NCBI GenBank assembly: GCA_002952755.1
Contig: CP025011.1
Location: 1,170,001 to 1,202,000, forward strand
Source: Candidatus Saccharimonadota bacterium
Lineage (GTDB): Bacteria; Patescibacteriota; Saccharimonadia; Saccharimonadales; UBA4665
Reading direction: 5' to 3'
DNA length: 32,000 bases
Shown here: positions 697 through 8,434 of the stretch, in pieces
Layout: every line of letters starts with the position of its first letter
Numbering within the stretch: the first letter of the stretch is position 1
The notes under the pieces: model-generated
Told to the model about the DNA's origin: nothing
Database searches by the model: none
What the model saw: the letters and a program-made list of their open reading frames with translations, nothing else
Translations under genes and position numbers: made by a program

Positions 697-1368
697 ATGA
701 GAATCAATAAATTTGTCGCACTCCATAGTGGCTTGTCGCGCCGTGCAGCAGATGCTGTTATTGCCCAAGGGAGGGTACTGATAAACGGCAACTATGTTCA
801 GGCAGGTCAGAATGTGAACCTAAAAGATGTAGTAACCTTGGACGGCCGAGCGCTTGCTGTTCAGCCCAAGCTACAAACCATCCTACTCAACAAACCCGAA
901 GGATATGTGGTGAGTCGGGATGGACAGGGCAGTGCGACTATCTACAATCTATTACCCCCAGAGCTGCATAACCTTAAACCGGTGGGGCGGCTCGACAAAG
1001 ACTCTTCCGGACTGCTTCTGCTTACCAACGATGGTCAACTCGCCCAGGAGCTCACACATCCCAAGTACCAAAAAACAAAAGTGTACGAAATTTCCCTAAG
1101 CTCGCCCCTCACGTCTACTCACCAGAAACAAATTGTCGAAGGCGGCGTTCACTTGGATGATGGTATAAGTAAGCTTGGCCTGCAAAGGCTAGAGCAGCAG
1201 GATGAACGGTCGTGGCGAGTCTCCATGCACGAAGGACGCAACCGCCAGATCCGCCGCACTTTCGGCTCGCTAGGGTACCAGGTGATCCGATTGCACCGAA
1301 CTCAATTTGGCACATATCAGCTGCCGGCAAGTTTAACGCCAGGCGAGTGGATTACTATTACTCCTTAA
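697..1368 (+). CDS. 16S/23S rRNA pseudouridine synthase, RsuA/RluB family, with N-terminal S4 domain
   Basis: S4-like N-terminus (MRINKFVALHSGLSRRAADAVIAQGRVLINGN). Catalytic-Asp motif GRLDKDSSGLLLLTNDG. C-terminal EGRNRQIRR motif typical of the family. GGGGG lies 6 nt upstream of the ATG. Confidence 0.9.
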   Translation: MRINKFVALHSGLSRRAADAVIAQGRVLINGNYVQAGQNVNLKDVVTLDGRALAVQPKLQTILLNKPEGYVVSRDGQGSATIYNLLPPELHNLKPVGRLDKDSSGLLLLTNDGQLAQELTHPKYQKTKVYEISLSSPLTSTHQKQIVEGGVHLDDGISKLGLQRLEQQDERSWRVSMHEGRNRQIRRTFGSLGYQVIRLHRTQFGTYQLPASLTPGEWITITP

Positions 1369-1439
1369 CCACAGTGCTAACATCTATGTAATAAAAACGC
1401 TATGGTTTCAAGTGGTCTTATCTGTTATACTGTGCCTAA

Positions 1440-2807: not shown

Positions 2808-2910
2808 GCCCAGCAACTTCCTCATTCAAGTAGAGCGTTACACGCAGGCCGACTAAAGTCGGTCTGGTTGCACTACGCTTGACTCTACTTGAAGGAGCGC
2901 GTTGCTGGGC
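2808..2910 (+). other. 103-nt rod-like nested hairpin starting 1 nt after the der stop; possible U-tract-less terminator, 3'UTR structure or MITE-like palindrome
   Basis: Three nested helices share a centre near 2859. The outer helix is gcccagcaac (2808-2817) with gttgctgggc (2901-2910), 10 bp perfect. The middle helix is ttcaagtagag (2825-2835) with ctctacttgaa (2883-2893), 11 bp perfect. The apical helix is gccgac-taaa-gtcggt (2848-2863). Confidence 0.5.
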
Positions 2911-2967
2911 GTCAAGATGTCGCTGGCTCTTACCGCTTAACCCCTCTTAAGGTATACTCATAGAGAT

Positions 2968-3609
2968 ATGGGACTATTTCAACGTCGTCCGCAGGCTGGC
3001 GAAACCATCCAGTATTACACGCTCGGGCAGAATAAAACCGTGCTGGTCGTAGGCCTGGGCAACCCCGGCAAAGAGTACGACGGTACGCGCCACAACATTG
3101 GCTTTGCCTGTCTCGATGCATTTGCCAAAGCCAACGACTTTGGGCCCTGGATTGATAAAAAGGACCTCAAATGCCAGCAGGCAACCGCCACGCTCGCCGG
3201 AACACGTGTGATCCTCATCAAGCCCACTACATTCATGAACTTAAGCGGCGACGCCGTGCAAGCCGTAGCTAATTTCTACAAAATTGCTGCAAGCAACCTA
3301 GTTGTCGTGCACGATGAGTTGGATATTCCGTTTGGCCAGATTCGCTTGCGTATAGGCGGTGGCAGCGCCGGGCATAACGGGCTCAAATCGATTATCAGCC
3401 ACCTCGGAGAAGGTTTTGCCCGCGTGCGCATCGGCATTGGCCCCAAAGAACCAGAGCAAATGGATAGCGCCGACTTTGTACTGGCCAAATTCAACGCCGG
3501 CCAATCGTCCCATATGAGCGAACTCACCCGCGAAGTCAGCGCCATACTTAGCGAGTATGCCTACGGCGGCGCGCAGCTCCCACAAGAAACCCGCAGTTTT
3601 ATCGTGTAA
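2968..3609 (+). CDS. pth: Peptidyl-tRNA hydrolase
   Basis: Signature LVVGLGNPGKEYDGTRHNIGF, later VVHDELD and GHNGLKS motifs. The ATG start gives a 24-aa N-terminal extension. An in-frame GTG at 3040 would give the canonical MLVVGLGNPG start. Confidence 0.92.
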   Translation: MGLFQRRPQAGETIQYYTLGQNKTVLVVGLGNPGKEYDGTRHNIGFACLDAFAKANDFGPWIDKKDLKCQQATATLAGTRVILIKPTTFMNLSGDAVQAVANFYKIAASNLVVVHDELDIPFGQIRLRIGGGSAGHNGLKSIISHLGEGFARVRIGIGPKEPEQMDSADFVLAKFNAGQSSHMSELTREVSAILSEYAYGGAQLPQETRSFIV

Positions 3610-3618
3610 TAGATAGTG

Positions 3619-4518
3619 CTACGAAATTAATTCGGCTGGGATAATTCCGTCTCTAATGACCAGACCATACGTGTTAATCTCGGCATTGTTGTCTGGATCT
3701 ATGTCTCTTGTGGCGTAGTCAAAATTAACTGCGGGTAGTCCTAAGGCGCCCAACTTATAAATGATTGCTAGTTGCTCGGCTGGGAGCGTTACTGTCACTT
3801 CACCAATTGATTCACCGCCAGCCTGTTCCCAGGCCGCGATACACGCCTCGCCAATTTTACCAACTTGATACCATTGCAGTTGATCCATGCGTACCATATC
3901 TGAAAAAAAGCGAGCCATGCCATCTATGTCATCTTCTTCTGACTTGAGCGTATCCACAGCATCTGCCAATGCAACAAGCATCTCCTCTGCGTCACCCGAA
4001 GGCTTGCCATATGCCCCGCCCAGCTGAAAATCAATGATACGGAGCTTGTAAGGATCGTCGGCGAGCTCCATGAGCCTATCGGTGTAGGTCTGCTGATACA
4101 CCCAACCCCCTCGTTCAGCAGCCAACTGGCCGCTTTCTCGGCGAATCATACTACCCTCAAGGCCATGAACGACCATTGCCGATCGCCGTGCCACCTGTTC
4201 ATACGAAGTTCCGTCTCTGAGACCAAGGTCAGCCGCCGTTCGAGCTCCAGTTAAATACACATTGACTGTTATATCTGTAGGCGTAGCGCCTAACCGATAA
4301 GCTTCATCAAAAAAGTCATAACCGCGCTGCAGGGAGTCGCTATTTCTTAGCTCCGGCGGCACATTTGTATTACCCAAAGCATCCCAGGTTCCCATAGGAC
4401 GGCGACTTTCAACAAATGGTATGTCAGTTATAGCGTAGGGCTGATAAAGCTGCAGGTTACCGTCAGCTCGTTCGTCTACCCATGTTTCTGGGGGGAGTAT
4501 CCGCCTCGCTTCACTCAT
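3619..4518 (-). CDS. Hypothetical cytoplasmic protein, 299 aa, no recognised domain
   Basis: Long ORF with ordinary composition. It has its own promoter-like TTGTAA-17 nt-TATAAT, with the ATG 7 nt after the -10. Convergent with pth, leaving only a 9-nt gap between the stops. Confidence 0.7.
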   Translation of the reverse strand: MSEARRILPPETWVDERADGNLQLYQPYAITDIPFVESRRPMGTWDALGNTNVPPELRNSDSLQRGYDFFDEAYRLGATPTDITVNVYLTGARTAADLGLRDGTSYEQVARRSAMVVHGLEGSMIRRESGQLAAERGGWVYQQTYTDRLMELADDPYKLRIIDFQLGGAYGKPSGDAEEMLVALADAVDTLKSEEDDIDGMARFFSDMVRMDQLQWYQVGKIGEACIAAWEQAGGESIGEVTVTLPAEQLAIIYKLGALGLPAVNFDYATRDIDPDNNAEINTYGLVIRDGIIPAELIS

Positions 4519-4525
4519 ACTATAT

Positions 4526-4554
4526 ATTATAGCATATTTATCATAGTATTACAA
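4526..4554 (-). promoter_or_regulatory. Promoter of the 299-aa gene; apparently leaderless
   Basis: On the minus strand, TTGTAA (4554-4549), a 17-nt spacer, then perfect TATAAT (4531-4526). The ATG at 4518 follows 7 nt later. Confidence 0.6.
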
Positions 4555-4555
4555 C

Positions 4556-4602
4556 AAAAAAGACCGGCGAGAGGGGGTGGGCACCGCTCGCCGGTCATTT
4601 TT
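4556..4602. terminator. Strong bidirectional intrinsic terminator
   Basis: A perfect 10-bp GC-rich stem, gaccggcgag (4562-4571) with ctcgccggtc (4587-4596), encloses a 15-nt loop. The loop can add a ggt/acc extension. An A6 run (4556-4561) gives U6 on the minus strand. A T5 run (4598-4602) gives the + strand tail. Confidence 0.8.
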
Positions 4603-4956
4603 GGGGATATCGTCGCCGATCTCCCCACTCCCTTCAACCCACCCCAGCGAAAGCGTCGAAACTAAAACTCCATAAAGTTCGCGCCGGTTGCGACAAGCAA
4701 CCATCCTTATCAGACACGCCAGCCCACAAAGAGGGCCTCCATAACCGTGAGGTCATAGGGGTCCCCGTAAAAACCAAAGTTAATACGAGGTTCAGTTAAA
4801 GGGGTTAGTATGTTTTAGAACGTCTGATTGCAAGCAATCAACGCCAATAGAAAAGTGGAGGGTAACAACTTGGTCTACGTGGCCGTTCTAAAACAATCTA
4901 ACAATTTGTTAGAATGGGGGATATAAGGTGCGTAAACGTATCGCGTACATTTACAG
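4556..4956 (-). ncRNA. Candidate ~400-nt structured non-coding RNA of unknown family
   Basis: Bounded by the consensus promoter at 4963-4991 and the terminator at 4556-4602. No ORF of 60 aa or more in any frame. Structural elements seen:
- a 9-bp hairpin at 4932-4954, starting right after the predicted TSS;
- a 17-nt perfect palindrome at 4897-4913;
- a 12-bp perfect long-range helix, 4811-4822 with 4884-4895;
- the hairpin GGTTGC-ttgtc-GCAACC at 4686-4702;
- a GCGA (GNRA)-capped hairpin at 4603-4626.
None of the conserved cores I know for tmRNA, RNase P or SRP RNA is present. Confidence 0.5.
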
Positions 4957-4962
4957 GATGCG

Positions 4963-4991
4963 ATTTTAGCATCATGTAGGGTGCCTGTCAA
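4963..4991 (-). promoter_or_regulatory. Near-consensus sigma-70-type promoter driving the candidate ncRNA
   Basis: On the minus strand, TTGACA (4991-4986), a 17-nt spacer (4985-4969), then TAAAAT (4968-4963). Predicted TSS near 4956. Confidence 0.65.
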
Positions 4992-5011
4992 TACTTTTTA
5001 CATAAATTTGT

Positions 5012-5875
5012 ATGAAATTCAACAAGCTTGTGCTTTCCACCTCTGATGTTCCGAATAAATTAGGGAACATTTCTTCGCCACCGAGACAGTTGTATATACT
5101 CGCTCAGAATGTTAAAGAACTATTTTCTCGACCCGCAGTAGCCGTGGTTGGCAGTCGTAAAGTCAGTAGCTATGGTAGGGCAGTTACGTCCAGTCTTGCT
5201 GGAGAATTGGCCAGGGCAGGGATTGTTATTATAAGCGGTTTAGCGCTCGGTGTCGATAGTATTGCTCATCAAGCCGCAATCGACGCTGGCGGAACGACGA
5301 TCGCCGTGCTGCCAAGCGGGTTGGGCCAGATATATCCAGCGACGCATCGGGGATTGGCTGAGGCCATCCTAGAACGGGGCGGGGCACTGATTACCGAATA
5401 TCCCGATGGCACACCTATAATGAAGCACAATTTTATCGCCCGCAATCGACTCATTTCCGGTCTTTCGGATGCCGTCCTCGTTACTGAGGCTGCTGCCAGG
5501 AGCGGCAGCCTGCATACCGCCGATTTCGCTCTTGAACAGGGAAGAACGGTATTGGCCATACCAGGAAATATCACCAGTGCAACATCGGCCGGCACGAACA
5601 ATCTCATCAAGAGCGGGGCGCTTACGGCCACCGAACCTGCCGATGTCCTGCGTGCCATTGGCATCGAACCCCTGCTTGCAGATCGTCCTGCCCCAAAAAG
5701 CAGTAATCCTAACGAACAGGTACTTTTAGACCTCCTCACATGCGGACTACAGGATGGCGCAGTATTATTAGAACAGAGTCGATTGGGGGTGAGTCTTTTT
5801 AATCAAAGCCTGACGATGCTCGAAATCCGTGGGCAGATTCGAGCACTCGGAAACAATCAATGGACGATACAATAG
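5012..5875 (+). CDS. dprA: DNA-processing protein A (DprA/Smf)
   Basis: Rossmann-like DprA core VAVVGSRKVSSYGRAVTSSLAGELARAGIVIISGLALGVDSIAHQAA...GTTIAVLPSGL...ARNRLISGLS. C-terminal winged-helix-like tail. Classic dprA-topA synteny. Confidence 0.9.
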   Translation: MKFNKLVLSTSDVPNKLGNISSPPRQLYILAQNVKELFSRPAVAVVGSRKVSSYGRAVTSSLAGELARAGIVIISGLALGVDSIAHQAAIDAGGTTIAVLPSGLGQIYPATHRGLAEAILERGGALITEYPDGTPIMKHNFIARNRLISGLSDAVLVTEAAARSGSLHTADFALEQGRTVLAIPGNITSATSAGTNNLIKSGALTATEPADVLRAIGIEPLLADRPAPKSSNPNEQVLLDLLTCGLQDGAVLLEQSRLGVSLFNQSLTMLEIRGQIRALGNNQWTIQ

Positions 5876-5879
5876 AGTT

Positions 5880-6053
5880 ATGAGCACTAAAGCACTGGTC
5901 TGGATCGGCATTTTTATCGGCTCAACCATCGGTGGATGGCTGGGGGCACTGCTAGCCCATGGGAATTGGCTGAGCTGGCAAAGTATCTTTGGTGGAGCGA
6001 TTGGCTCATTCGCCGGTATCTACGCTAGCTTCAAAAGCAGCCAGCTTTTCTAG
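5880..6053 (+). CDS. Small glycine-zipper membrane protein (57 aa, two predicted TM segments)
   Basis: The internal ATG at 5880 lies 4 nt after the dprA stop. Sequence is MSTKALVWIGIFIGSTIGGWLGALL...FGGAIGSFAGIYA, with GxxxG-type repeats. The ORF-track start at 5829 would overlap dprA. Confidence 0.55.
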   Translation: MSTKALVWIGIFIGSTIGGWLGALLAHGNWLSWQSIFGGAIGSFAGIYASFKSSQLF

Positions 6054-6142
6054 CCACTTTTTACTCATTCTTGCAAAAATGTTTGCGTTTTACGGCTTAC
6101 TTGCGTAGTATGGCGGTTACGTATAAGATACGTGAGATAAGC

Positions 6143-8434
6143 ATGAGCAAAAATCTAGTCATTGTTGAGAGCCCGGCCAAGGCCAAGACTATCGAAAAAT
6201 ACCTGGGCAGCGAGTACATCGTTAAAAGTTCTATTGGACACATCCGTGGTTTGCCCAGCAAAAACGGTAGTGTCGATGTTGCCAACAATTTTGCCCCAAA
6301 ATTTGAAGTTGACCCTGACAAAAAAAAGGTGATCGCCGAACTCAAGGCCGCCGCCAAATCTGCAGACAGCGTGCTACTCGCTAGCGATGAAGACCGTGAA
6401 GGGGAGGCTATCGCCTGGCACGTGGCCGAAGTGCTCAAACTGAACCCAAAAACAACCAAGCGCATAGTCTTCCACGAAATTACCAAAAACGCGCTGGATG
6501 AAGCCGTAAAAAACCCGCGCACCATTGATATGAACCTGGTGGAGGCACAACAGGCCCGCCAATCACTTGATTACTTAGTAGGCTTTGAATTGAGCCCTGT
6601 GCTGTGGCGCAAAGTCCGCGCCGGCCTTTCGGCTGGGCGTGTCCAGAGCGTAGCCGTACGCCTGATAGTGGAACGTGAAGCCGAGATTGACGCTCACGTA
6701 CCAGAAAGCACCTTTAAGCTAACTGCCGAATTCACTCTAAGCGATGGCACGGCCTTATTGGCCGGCAGCAGTAAGAAGTTTGCCACCGCCGAAGAAGTTC
6801 GTGAAGTACTCCAAGCCTTTGCTGGCAGCACCTTTACCGTAGCAAACGTCTCCCAAAAACCGGGTACGCGCAGTCCGGGCGCACCGTTCACCACCAGTAC
6901 TCTGCAGCAAGAGGCGAGCAGCAAACTCGGCTATAGTCCACGCGCTACCATGCAGCTCGCGCAGCGCCTGTACGAAGCTGGACACATTACATACATGCGT
7001 ACTGACTCAGTGAACTTAAGCACTCAAGCACTTGGCGCCATGACCAGCTTTATCACCAAAGAATATGGCGAAAACTACCACCAATACCGAACGTTCAAAA
7101 GCAAAAGCGCCAACGCCCAGGAAGCTCACGAAGCCATTCGCCCCACGAATGTCGCCCAGGAGTCCGCCGGAGCTGATGAGCAACAAAAGAAGCTCTATAA
7201 CCTTATCTGGCGCCGGACGCTAGCCAGTCAAATGGCACCAGCGCAGCTTGAAAACACTACCGTTAGCATTGCCGCGAATGGCTCAAAAGAGACCCTGGAA
7301 GCGAAAGGGCAAGTAGTACTTTTTGATGGTTTTCTAAAAGTGTATGGGCGCAGCGGGGACGACACACTACTGCCAGCGCTAAGTGTCGGCGATCCACTGA
7401 CGCTCCAATCTGCCGAAGCCCTCGAAGCCCTCAGCCGCGGCCCAGCCCGTTACACTGAAGCTACTCTGGTTAAAAAACTCGAGGAAATGGGCATTGGCCG
7501 CCCAAGCACCTACGCCAGCACTATTAATACCGTTCAAACTCGCGGTTACGTAGAGCGTGGCGACCTAGAAGGGGTGGAAAAAGATATTCAAAAAATCCGC
7601 CTTGAAAACGGCGTAGTCGAGCAAACTACCGAAAAGCTGATGTACGGCCGCGACAGCAACAAACTATTTCCGACCGATACCGGCAAAGTGGTCACCGGCT
7701 TTTTGGTGAAATATTTTGCAGAGGTGATGGACTACGACTTCACCAAGGATATCGAGGAAGAACTCGACCAGATTGCTTTGGCTAAAAAAAACCGTGTTGA
7801 GGTTCTTGAGGAATTCTACAATCCGTTCCATAAATTAGTAGAGGATAGTGCCGACGTTTCACGCGCCGAAGCCACTCAAGCTCGCCACATCGGCAACGAC
7901 CCTAAAACCAACAAGCCTATTTATGCGCGCTTCGGCCGCTTTGGACCAATGCTCCAGCGAGGGGAACAAGGTGATGACCCTAAGCCAGATTTTGCACCAC
8001 TGCCAATCGGCAAGAAGATAGAAACTGTCACCCTGGAAGAAGCGCTGGAGATGTTCCAGCTGCCCCGTCTCGTAGGTCAAACCGCCGATGGCAAGGACAT
8101 GAAAGCCAATATCGGCCGCTTTGGGCCGTACGTACAGGTTGAAAAGACCTTTGTATCTATCAAGCCGCTAAGTCCATTTGACATCACAGAATCAGAGGCA
8201 CGCGAACTATATCAAGCCAAGCTTCAAAAAGAAGCCAACAAGTACATCCAGGTATTCCCAAGTGGCATCCAAGTCGTAAATGGACCCTATGGGCCTTACA
8301 TCACCGACGGCAAAAAAAATGCCAAAATACCAAAAGATAAAGAGCCGGCCGCTCTCAGCGAAGCAGAAGCCAAAAAGCTGCTCGATGAAGCGCCAACACG
8401 CAAGCGTTTTACCCGTCGCCGTAAGGCCTCTTAG
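6143..8434 (+). CDS. topA: DNA topoisomerase I (type IA), with a Zn-finger-less C-terminal repeat domain and a Lys-rich tail
   Basis: Toprim N-terminus MSKNLVIVESPAKAKTIEKYLG. DEDREGE motif. Active-site region GHITYMRTDS. C-terminal repeats of GRFGPY type (ARFGRFGPM, NIGRFGPYV, NGPYGPYITDG). The ORF-track TTG start at 6071 adds 24 implausible residues. Confidence 0.95.
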   Translation: MSKNLVIVESPAKAKTIEKYLGSEYIVKSSIGHIRGLPSKNGSVDVANNFAPKFEVDPDKKKVIAELKAAAKSADSVLLASDEDREGEAIAWHVAEVLKLNPKTTKRIVFHEITKNALDEAVKNPRTIDMNLVEAQQARQSLDYLVGFELSPVLWRKVRAGLSAGRVQSVAVRLIVEREAEIDAHVPESTFKLTAEFTLSDGTALLAGSSKKFATAEEVREVLQAFAGSTFTVANVSQKPGTRSPGAPFTTSTLQQEASSKLGYSPRATMQLAQRLYEAGHITYMRTDSVNLSTQALGAMTSFITKEYGENYHQYRTFKSKSANAQEAHEAIRPTNVAQESAGADEQQKKLYNLIWRRTLASQMAPAQLENTTVSIAANGSKETLEAKGQVVLFDGFLKVYGRSGDDTLLPALSVGDPLTLQSAEALEALSRGPARYTEATLVKKLEEMGIGRPSTYASTINTVQTRGYVERGDLEGVEKDIQKIRLENGVVEQTTEKLMYGRDSNKLFPTDTGKVVTGFLVKYFAEVMDYDFTKDIEEELDQIALAKKNRVEVLEEFYNPFHKLVEDSADVSRAEATQARHIGNDPKTNKPIYARFGRFGPMLQRGEQGDDPKPDFAPLPIGKKIETVTLEEALEMFQLPRLVGQTADGKDMKANIGRFGPYVQVEKTFVSIKPLSPFDITESEARELYQAKLQKEANKYIQVFPSGIQVVNGPYGPYITDGKKNAKIPKDKEPAALSEAEAKKLLDEAPTRKRFTRRRKAS

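Follow-up and report, generated by a model that had tools for sequence, protein, structure and literature searches.

Large structured RNAs of bacteria and the locus upstream of dprA

The described systems closest to the element reported here are the large, complex-folded non-coding RNAs (ncRNAs) of bacteria: OLE, ROOL, GOLLD, the raiA motif and HEARO. These lineage-specific RNAs, whose functions are known in part at best, are several hundred nucleotides (nt) long and combine covarying helices, invariant single strands and variable peripheral hairpins; two of them, ROOL and GOLLD, are linked to phages. Here we describe a candidate RNA of this kind from the minus strand (positions 4956-4556) of a 32,000-nt stretch of the genome of a Candidatus Saccharimonadota bacterium (assembly GCA_002952755.1, contig CP025011.1, positions 1,170,001 to 1,202,000), which we call the window. 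It lies in the gap upstream of dprA, and we read it as an undescribed, independently transcribed and trans-acting structured ncRNA of about 400 nt, encoded by a core gene of the Saccharibacteria, which are ultra-small epibionts; we put the probability of this reading at about 80%. That the interval holds a real structured ncRNA gene is, judging from the comparative sequence evidence, almost certain.

The new RNA shares the architectural features just listed with these families, and the comparison extends to a promoter and terminator of its own and to occurrence in a single lineage; the likeness is one of kind only. In contrast to OLE- and ROOL-type RNAs, it occupies a fixed core-genome locus (pth, the RNA, dprA-topA) in a genome of about 1 Mb, and not a prophage or a tRNA-rich region. 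It further differs from ROOL and GOLLD in that phage contigs share with it the apex of the 3' hairpin alone and lack the rest of the RNA in any form that the family profile recognises, L273 (below) excepted. Class A RNase P RNA is alike in size, in having a core with a variable periphery, in being single-copy and in having a strong promoter, while transfer-messenger RNA (tmRNA) is alike in size, in its G-rich and C-rich segments able to form pseudoknots and in its core-genome location. With RsaE/RoxS and RNAIII, regulatory RNAs of Gram-positive bacteria whose C-rich loops pair with G-rich or Shine-Dalgarno (SD) sequences, it has in common invariant, exposed C-rich motifs (CCCCC, CCUCC, CCACCCCC) in loops and linkers, which would allow pairing with G-rich targets; unlike these RNAs, it is about four times longer, has an elaborate conserved architecture of tertiary type and sits among window genes that mostly lack SD motifs (found in 4 of 31).

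For the Saccharibacteria phylum, Weinberg et al. (2017) list just the small lysM-TM7 motif, and according to a preprint on the TM7x transcriptome not one small RNA of TM7x has so far been validated (10.1101/2022.03.25.485537). No ncRNA of Saccharibacteria or Patescibacteria resembling this RNA or its apex sequence is described in the openly searchable literature. Judged by that literature and by Rfam, the family is very probably new, without demonstrable kinship to any known kind.

A conserved family of RNA genes divergent from dprA

Relatives were collected via DprA matches in the one-genome-per-species GTDB contigs, with metagenome contigs and IMG/VR viral contigs added. The closest DprA relatives are from Saccharibacteria, at 67% amino-acid identity. 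An nhmmer search with the intergenic sequence alone recovered homologues directly upstream of dprA and in the same orientation, with E-values down to 6e-71, a value reached against loci whose DprA is just 67% identical. A pattern of two invariant blocks gave at least 120 matches in metagenome contigs. The profile search returned 193 matches (61 genome loci, 127 metagenome and 5 viral), from which 146 distinct full-length sequences were obtained; homologues overall number about 170. The RNA is 330-450 nt long in these relatives, and its core blocks are more conserved than the neighbouring proteins.

We also built a covariance model, R1, of the 5' domain of the RNA, with the window sequence among its seeds. 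R1 detects all 100 of the 100 selected Saccharibacteria loci at E<1e-6, and the window itself scores 159 bits against it (E ~1e-36), with all anchor blocks present. Neither R1 nor nhmmer found the RNA in any of 18 dprA loci from other candidate phyla radiation (CPR) classes, Chloroflexota or Firmicutes.

In nearly all homologues the same gene order is observed: der, pth and a variable segment, then the RNA on the minus strand, divergent from dprA and topA. Of the copies not at a contig edge, 129 out of 158 are divergent from dprA; among the remaining ones at least 15 are without dprA and adjoin topA instead. Across the loci compared, the RNA locus is syntenic and single-copy in the core genome. 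The sequence 3' of the terminator is unconserved among homologous loci. Since the RNA occurs without dprA and the gene downstream of it is not conserved, it is neither a leader nor tied to dprA.

Three sets of loci stand apart. Five metagenome-assembled genomes (MAGs; L003, L012, L016, L035 and L067) are labelled Pristimantibacillus, Parcubacteria, Nevskiaceae, Burkholderiaceae or Gammaproteobacteria; the locus is typical of Saccharibacteria in most of them and CPR-like in L067, so that the public entries seem to be mis-binned or mislabelled. In L193, two inverted copies of the RNA (972-1422, minus strand, and 2862-3315, plus strand) surround two dprA fragments; the arrangement may be a genuine inverted duplication, or it may stem from faulty assembly. 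Upstream of dprA in L052 (3500-3970) and L057 (3700-3970) lies a seeming reduced relative of about 220 nt. Judged by eye, it keeps the CACCCUCCUUU loop, a covarying P4 (in L057 the counterpart is UUGGAUACC/GGUAUCGAA), the same type of promoter and CCACC in the terminal loop; its loop GCACCCUCCUUUAG is a near match to the anti-SD tail of 16S rRNA. Neither locus is detected by R1, and we treat the reduced relative as a lead only.

Promoter, strand and non-coding status

The 5' boundary of the RNA gene is set by a promoter on the minus strand:

4986-4991, minus strand: -35 box TTGACA, found by the promoter scan and invariant in 25 of 25 aligned homologues
4963-4971, minus strand: extended -10 box TGCTAAAAT (TGnTAnAAT), for which the scan reports the TG extension

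The sequence-only reading of this DNA had proposed a near-consensus minus-strand promoter, TTGACA-17-TAAAAT at 4991-4963. It is indeed present with this spacing, is TG-extended and is conserved in homologues, where columns T41, G42, T44, A45 and T49 of the -10 region are invariant. An A-rich stretch, AAAAAGTA, precedes the -35 box. Transcription would start at about 4957-4954. From its sequence, the promoter is predicted to be strong and of sigma-70 type and, together with the RNA's own intrinsic terminator, it points to an independent gene.

Taken alone, the window is not enriched in such signals over shuffled sequences, with 5 promoter-like matches against 3.6 expected and 1 terminator-like match against 2.3. 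The minus strand of the interval folds with -152.6 kcal/mol (z=-5.6), and the plus strand gives z=-3.8. Such single-sequence evidence for an RNA unit is only suggestive. We accept the RNA gene because about 170 homologues show conservation or covariation of the promoter boxes, of the helices and of the terminator. These compensatory changes, and the conservation in relatives detected by nhmmer, bear out the earlier proposal of a structured minus-strand RNA of about 400 nt; its expression as a transcript is a prediction.

The strand is likewise indicated by comparison. Many of the minus-strand helices contain G-U pairs, and some of these are invariant, such as columns 12:192 in P4 and 139:175 in P9. 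Read from the plus strand, invariant G-U pairs would turn into A-C mismatches; as the promoter too is on the minus strand, the RNA is placed there.

The sequence-only reading had further held that the gap is without an open reading frame (ORF) of 60 amino acids or more and that its small minus-strand ORFs are unconvincing. Both points stand: the longest ORF in 4519-5011 has 51 amino acids, and the ORFs of the window's gap (32-51 codons) have no conserved counterpart, since position, frame and presence of ORFs vary among homologues on both strands. One homologue (L062) has no ORF of 20 codons or more at the locus. Insertions and deletions among homologues are not multiples of three.

Secondary structure of the 5' domain

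The RNA is composed of two domains. The 5' domain was analysed in a model-based alignment of 96 distinct sequences, in which 91.3% of cells are paired and double changes are seen in 29 of 35 pairs. Covariation scores 0.347, a value that none of 500 shuffled alignments reaches (0.151), and controls in which the partners are shifted by 1-3 columns are 32-45% paired. A MAFFT alignment made independently of structure gives the same picture. The elements of this domain are:

4932-4954, minus strand: P1, the hairpin at the 5' end, with 9 bp in the window; 9 of 10 pairs double-changed, 88% paired
4914-4931, minus strand: J1/2, the single strand GCACCUUAUAUCCCCCAU(U), near-invariant and unpaired in every consensus fold
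4897-4913, minus strand: P2, the hairpin UCUAACA/UGUUAGA; 98% paired, 3 pairs double-changed
4884-4896, minus strand: 5' strand of P3, UUGUUUUAGAACG; 12 of 13 pairs double-changed, 96% paired
4883-4880 with 4846-4843: P3a, a short helix GCCA/UGGC that closes L3a; weakly supported (72% paired, 5 of 5 pairs double-changed)
4853-4870, minus strand: L3a, the invariant loop AGUUGUUACCCUCCACUU, identical over 18 nt in 132 of 145 homologues
4824-4840, minus strand: P3b, the variable hairpin UGAUUGC/GCAAUCA; a hairpin in all homologues, of unrelated sequences and lengths
4811-4822, minus strand: 3' strand of P3, CGUUCUAAAACA, from the covariation alignments
4810-4805, minus strand: the conserved linker (U)ACUAA, following the 3' strand of P3

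The helices of this domain differ in what is conserved. P1 is variable in sequence and kept in structure. P2 corresponds to a 17-nt palindrome, UCUAACAAAUUGUUAGA (4913-4897), which is mostly invariant among homologues; in about 40% of them its loop holds an inserted hairpin of 10-160 nt. The strand between P1 and P2, conserved as GCACCUUAUAUCCCCCAUU, is pyrimidine-rich. P3 is a long-range helix of 12 bp (4895-4884 with 4822-4811) that forms a three-way junction: one arm, P3a, presents the invariant loop L3a, and the other arm is P3b. The likeness of P3 (GUUUUAGAGC/G) to the first bases of the CRISPR repeat of Streptococcus-type Cas9 systems was considered and is judged coincidental, there being no cas genes nearby and the helix being a perfect intramolecular one.

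Secondary structure of the 3' domain

For the 3' domain, 27 sequences of the clade to which the window belongs were aligned with MAFFT. The structure was derived by RNAalifold on this same alignment, which somewhat favours the percentage of paired cells (96.0%) and not the count of double changes (40 of 81 pairs). The covariation score is 0.327 against 0.132 in shuffles (reached by 0 of 500), with 38-49% paired in the shifted controls. The elements are:

4794-4804, minus strand: 5' strand of P4, CCCCUUUAACU, which opens the 3' domain and pairs with 4639-4630; 98% paired
4722-4792, minus strand: lineage-variable hairpins I-III; all pairs of helices 2, 3 and 5 double-changed
4762-4758, minus strand: 5' strand of P5, ACCCC; CCCC/GGGG, CCCG/CGGG or CCCG/UGGG across clades
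4646-4720, minus strand: P6-P9 junction, with P6 GGCG/CGCU and P7 GUC...GAU; helices 7-11, 82-100% paired
4702-4686, minus strand: P8 (GGTTGC-ttgtc-GCAACC); 6 pairs double-changed
4685-4652, minus strand: P9, with loop UUUAUGGAGUUUUA; 5 pairs double-changed
4630-4645, minus strand: block 9, GGGGUGGGUUGAAGGG, the 3' strands of P5 and P4; pairing supported by covariation
4603-4626, minus strand: P10, an optional hairpin GGGGAGAUCG-GCGA-CGAUAUCCCC; 94% paired

In this domain P4 (CCCCUUUAAC/GUUGAAGGG), P5 and P6 form a coaxial stack, with the P7-P9 junction as its cap. P4 covaries in divergent lineages, for example to AAU/AUU in L041. Within block 9, 144 of 146 homologues retain GGUGGG, and variation is seen in the 2-3 nt that precede it on the 5' side. 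P10 is absent in about 30% of homologues, recognized by an A5-to-A6 distance below 20 nt. Folds of individual sequences from distant clades show the same plan of P4, P5, P6 and junction, while their peripheral hairpins have little in common. The central domain also exists in a second type, for example in L062 and L034.

The helices that the sequence-only reading had picked out (4954-4932, 4913-4897, 4895-4884/4822-4811, 4840-4824, 4702-4686 and 4626-4603) are all present where it placed them. Not all belong to the core of the RNA: the one at 4626-4603 and the hairpins of the middle of the 3' domain turn out to be lineage-variable periphery.

The terminal hairpin and its invariant apex

The RNA ends in a hairpin that was earlier described as a GC stem followed by six U residues:

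4556-4596, minus strand: 3' hairpin and intrinsic terminator, stem GACCGGCGAG/CUCGCCGGUC; 7 of 10 pairs double-changed, 99.6% paired
4587-4571, minus strand: the invariant apex GCGGUGCCCACCCCCUC, 17 nt, atop the covarying stem
4583-4575, minus strand: the apical loop UGCCCACCC, pyrimidine-rich and containing CCACC
4561-4556, minus strand: U6 tract at the 3' end

As a conserved and covarying terminator this hairpin agrees with the earlier description. It is more than a terminator, though: at its apex it carries an invariant, functional module. The stem, of 10 bp in the window, covaries through five pair types, while the apex has the form GCGGTGCCCACCCCCTC in 139 of 146 homologues. Divergent lineages (L036, L041, L046, L051, L059 and L060) show that the true apical loop is of 9 nt: its closing strands are GCGG/CCUC, which include a C-U mismatch, or GCGA/UUGC. 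In the 1.32 Mb of non-viral loci (L001-L200), all 161 copies of the apex 15-mer GGTGCCCACCCCCTC are inside the RNA gene. With this hairpin the window carries the full set of features that define the family: the promoter, P1-P3, L3a, P4 as CCCUUUAAC/GUUGAAGGG and the loop of the 3' hairpin.

The most obvious internal partner of the apex is block 9. Its segment GGGGUGGG and the terminator loop CCCACCCC are complementary, and inspection of the sequence shows that apex positions 3-14 are exactly complementary to GGGGUGGG of block 9 plus CACC of J1/2. A pseudoknot between GGGUGGG of block 9 and CCCACCC of the apical loop, an 8-nt perfect complement, was considered and set aside, as block 9 covaries within P4/P5. 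Within the window, complements of L3a, J1/2 and the apex matched solely the opposite strand of the gene itself.

The apex hairpin in viral contigs

The apex 15-mer is also found in 86 IMG/VR loci (L201-L286). Of the 87 viral matches, 50 are flanked by an inverted repeat of 6-17 bp that differs between contigs and holds strand-specific G-U wobbles; hence we take the viral copies as an RNA hairpin with the same apex on a covarying stem. The copies are mostly intergenic and occur in several settings. In the L207 family (for example L207:2867-2884) the hairpin comes after a small ORF that itself follows the portal gene, and it precedes genes leading to the major head gene; in L233 and L234 it lies between two tRNA genes; in L284, L285 and L209 it is at the ends of small promoter-to-terminator units; and in a few cases (L202, L214) the apex falls within a long ORF, some 35 codons from its stop. 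The apex hairpin has no match in Rfam (16 viral loci), in GenBank phages or in the searchable literature. Taken from sequence, it would be a portable recognition module that phages have copied to reach the same partner as the host RNA.

Scans of the viral contigs with 15-mers and 14-mers for the other blocks of the RNA were negative apart from L273, recognised by the profile, and two marginal matches (E ~7e-4); the remaining 15-mer and 14-mer matches of other blocks we take to be chance. L273 (IMGVR_UViG_3300049064_000004; 5738-6877 and 7925-8386) has a complete RNA beside genes for RecT, FtsK/PD-(D/E)XK and two DNA methylases, and a second copy of the apex at 6863-6877 on the minus strand. 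It is probably a mobile element inserted at the place that dprA usually occupies.

Comparison with known RNA families

The sequence-only reading had recognised no known family in this RNA, and searches at both standard and permissive thresholds lead to the same conclusion. With Rfam 15 at gathering thresholds there is no match in the 32-kb window, in 17 other dprA loci or in 16 viral loci; ARAGORN likewise finds no tRNA gene in the window. At E<=10, the segment 4400-5150 gives noise alone (microRNA (miRNA) and enterobacterial small-RNA models). At E<=5, 20 homologous loci give two unrelated weak matches, within noise that includes miRNA models and the Thr leader. With ARAGORN, neither the window nor any of 22 related loci yields a tmRNA; one unrelated tRNA-Gln is reported in the latter.

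The individual housekeeping RNAs can be taken up in turn. The RNase P models RF00010 and RF00011 have no match in the window, the locus or the 20 homologues at the thresholds used; the RNase P core (~GAGGAAAGUCC) and its P4 partner are absent, and there is no pairing of the 5' and 3' ends as in the P1 of RNase P. A tRNA-like domain, a CCA acceptor and a tag frame, which would mark a tmRNA, are missing, and all four Rfam tmRNA models, including permuted forms, are negative. At either end the RNA folds back into a local hairpin, with no pairing of its ends like that of an acceptor stem. 6S RNA (RF00013), a rod of about 180 nt with a central bubble, gives no match, as opposed to the two-domain, multi-junction fold of about 400 nt observed here. 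There is no Rfam match to signal recognition particle (SRP) RNA (RF00169, RF01854), none to T-box elements or riboswitches, and none to the OLE, ROOL, GOLLD, raiA and HEARO models at any threshold used.

Gene neighbourhood in the window

The genes on both sides of the RNA in the window are:

4519-5011: gap between the 299-amino-acid ORF and dprA
3619-4518, minus strand: ORF of 299 amino acids, without a Pfam domain
5012-5875, plus strand: dprA (PF02481, E=3e-70)

In the window's gene map, topA is downstream of dprA, and der and pth are on the other side of the gap. The 299-amino-acid gene is present in 1 of about 60 related genome loci (L002, at 42% identity) and has the look of an insertion, peculiar to its lineage, that separates pth from the RNA. 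It has a promoter-like site of its own, at 4554-4526, upstream of its ATG at 4518. In many loci a convergent pth ends a few bases from the RNA terminator, for which reason the terminator looks bidirectional. Upstream of the start codon of many window genes, at 6-9 nt, there is a TAnnnT (TATACT/TATAAT-like) box, for example at 4526-4554 and upstream of 1440, 2968 and 13081; this suggests that leaderless mRNAs are widespread in the genome.

Possible function and alternative explanations

The conserved architecture offers a view of how such an RNA might work. The covarying helices would form a scaffold that exposes three invariant, pyrimidine-rich strands: J1/2, L3a with its CCUCC, and the apical loop with its CCACC. 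These strands would contact a conserved partner, either a G-rich segment of another RNA or a dedicated protein, and the phages would carry the apex on stems of their own to reach the same partner. The RNA might be a housekeeping RNA or a ribonucleoprotein component. Pairing with a G-rich RNA is proposed because nearly every nucleotide of the invariant strands is fixed. That the exposed C-rich loops bind a partner in trans is a tentative suggestion on our part, with the odds against it. A partner in trans, protein or RNA, is ranked above the internal pseudoknot because GGGGUGGG is tied up in P4/P5 and is not always kept together with the loop. L3a and J1/2 also resemble the anti-SD tail of 16S rRNA (CACCUCCUU). 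A role as an 'SD sponge' is not favoured, as just 4 of 31 genes have an SD motif and many seem to be leaderless.

Several observations weigh against parts of the reading of the RNA as a trans-acting core gene. The comparisons predict a conserved core gene of Saccharibacteria, and the class restriction covers the dprA neighbourhoods scanned and is not proven. Near the viral hairpins, no G-rich partner in cis was found above shuffled expectation. An SD-like motif precedes only those 4 of the 31 long ORFs of the window, which weakens an anti-SD role. The obvious partner of the apex in cis is also called into question: L101 and L153 alter block 9 with the loop unchanged, and block 9 is seemingly absent in the putative reduced relatives L052 and L057.

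A length of about 400 nt, a strong promoter, a single copy and class-wide conservation would fit rnpB or ssrA, and CPR RNase P RNAs can fall below Rfam thresholds (PMC8172020), so that a strongly diverged RNase P RNA, tmRNA, 6S or SRP RNA might be missed by standard models in this group. However, the locus at E<=10 and 20 homologues at E<=5 give no model match, ARAGORN is negative, the ends form local hairpins and no acceptor stem, and the RNase P P4 core and a tag frame are absent. Moreover, Lui et al. found class A RNase P RNA, via RF00010 at lowered thresholds, in all of their circularised CPR genomes, including two Saccharimonadia (PMC8172020). We regard this explanation as very improbable. 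Between GGGUUGAAGGGUG and the RNase P segment GGGUGAAAGGGUG, and between CCCUCCAC and tRNA/tmRNA 3' ends such as CUCCACCA, there is a vague likeness, the reference sequences being those of E. coli.

Still less probable is a cis element, be it a leader or attenuator (riboswitch- or T-box-like) of the 299-amino-acid gene or a regulator that acts on dprA as an antisense or divergent element. The spacing is suggestive of it, with the terminator about 40 nt upstream of the 299-amino-acid gene on the same strand and the promoter 20 nt from the dprA start codon, and the complementarity of GGGGUGGG to CCCACCCC looks switch-like. Against this, the 299-amino-acid gene is found in one other locus only and has its own promoter-like site, convergent pth comes next in many loci, and the RNA persists in at least 15 loci that lack dprA; the loop complement is outside the terminator stem and does not compete with it, so that its pairing could not prevent termination. 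That the locus acts not as RNA at all, and is instead a small protein gene, a DNA-level recombination or attachment site or the remnant of a mobile element, is barely credible. The ORFs of 32-51 codons, the mobile-like gene cluster of L273 and the apex in phage contigs could be read in this way, but the ORFs vary and the length changes are not in triplets, strand-specific G-U wobbles keep the helices paired, the locus is syntenic and single-copy, and the stems of the phage hairpins differ from the host's, which leaves no attP/attB identity blocks.

A different kind of alternative makes the RNA a ribozyme or an RNA-processing ribonucleoprotein for apex-tagged RNAs, in which its own 3' hairpin would fill the site in cis and tagged phage transcripts would be processed or protected. 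A large RNA with an invariant core and a variable periphery is what is seen in RNase P and in group I and II ribozymes, the complementarity of apex positions 3-14 to block 9 and J1/2 offers a binding site, and the phage copies are at plausible processing sites (between tRNA genes in L233 and L234, in the L207 family, and in L284 and L285). Yet block 9 is fully paired, the L101 and L153 variants keep the apex, L052 and L057 seem to be without block 9, and a pairing of 12 bp within a 17-nt loop would be sterically unlikely; we consider it doubtful. Related to it, and in our view also unlikely, is the proposal that the RNA is the core of an RNA-recognition system, ribozyme or ribonucleoprotein, that reads the portable 17-nt apex via its invariant segments or a bound protein. 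One copy of the apex would be on its own 3' end, and phages would tag their transcripts with it, between tRNA genes, ahead of genes leading to the head gene and on small RNAs, for processing, stabilising or hiding them.

Implications for the biology of Saccharibacteria

Saccharibacteria have genomes of about 1 Mb with very little non-coding DNA. An important role for the RNA is likely, because a gene of 400 nt is kept at one locus throughout the class and its core is more conserved than the neighbouring proteins. The family would add a class to the short list of large bacterial ncRNAs with complex folds and, besides the small lysM-TM7 motif, would be the first CPR-specific ncRNA class in the searchable literature. 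The apex that it has in common with uncultivated phages gives an independent handle on its function and, if the link to Saccharibacteria as hosts holds, could mark phages of the hard-to-culture Saccharibacteria. As cultured, naturally transformable strains of Saccharibacteria and transposon-sequencing (Tn-seq) data exist (PMC10633639), the essentiality, the partners and the structure of this RNA are directly testable.

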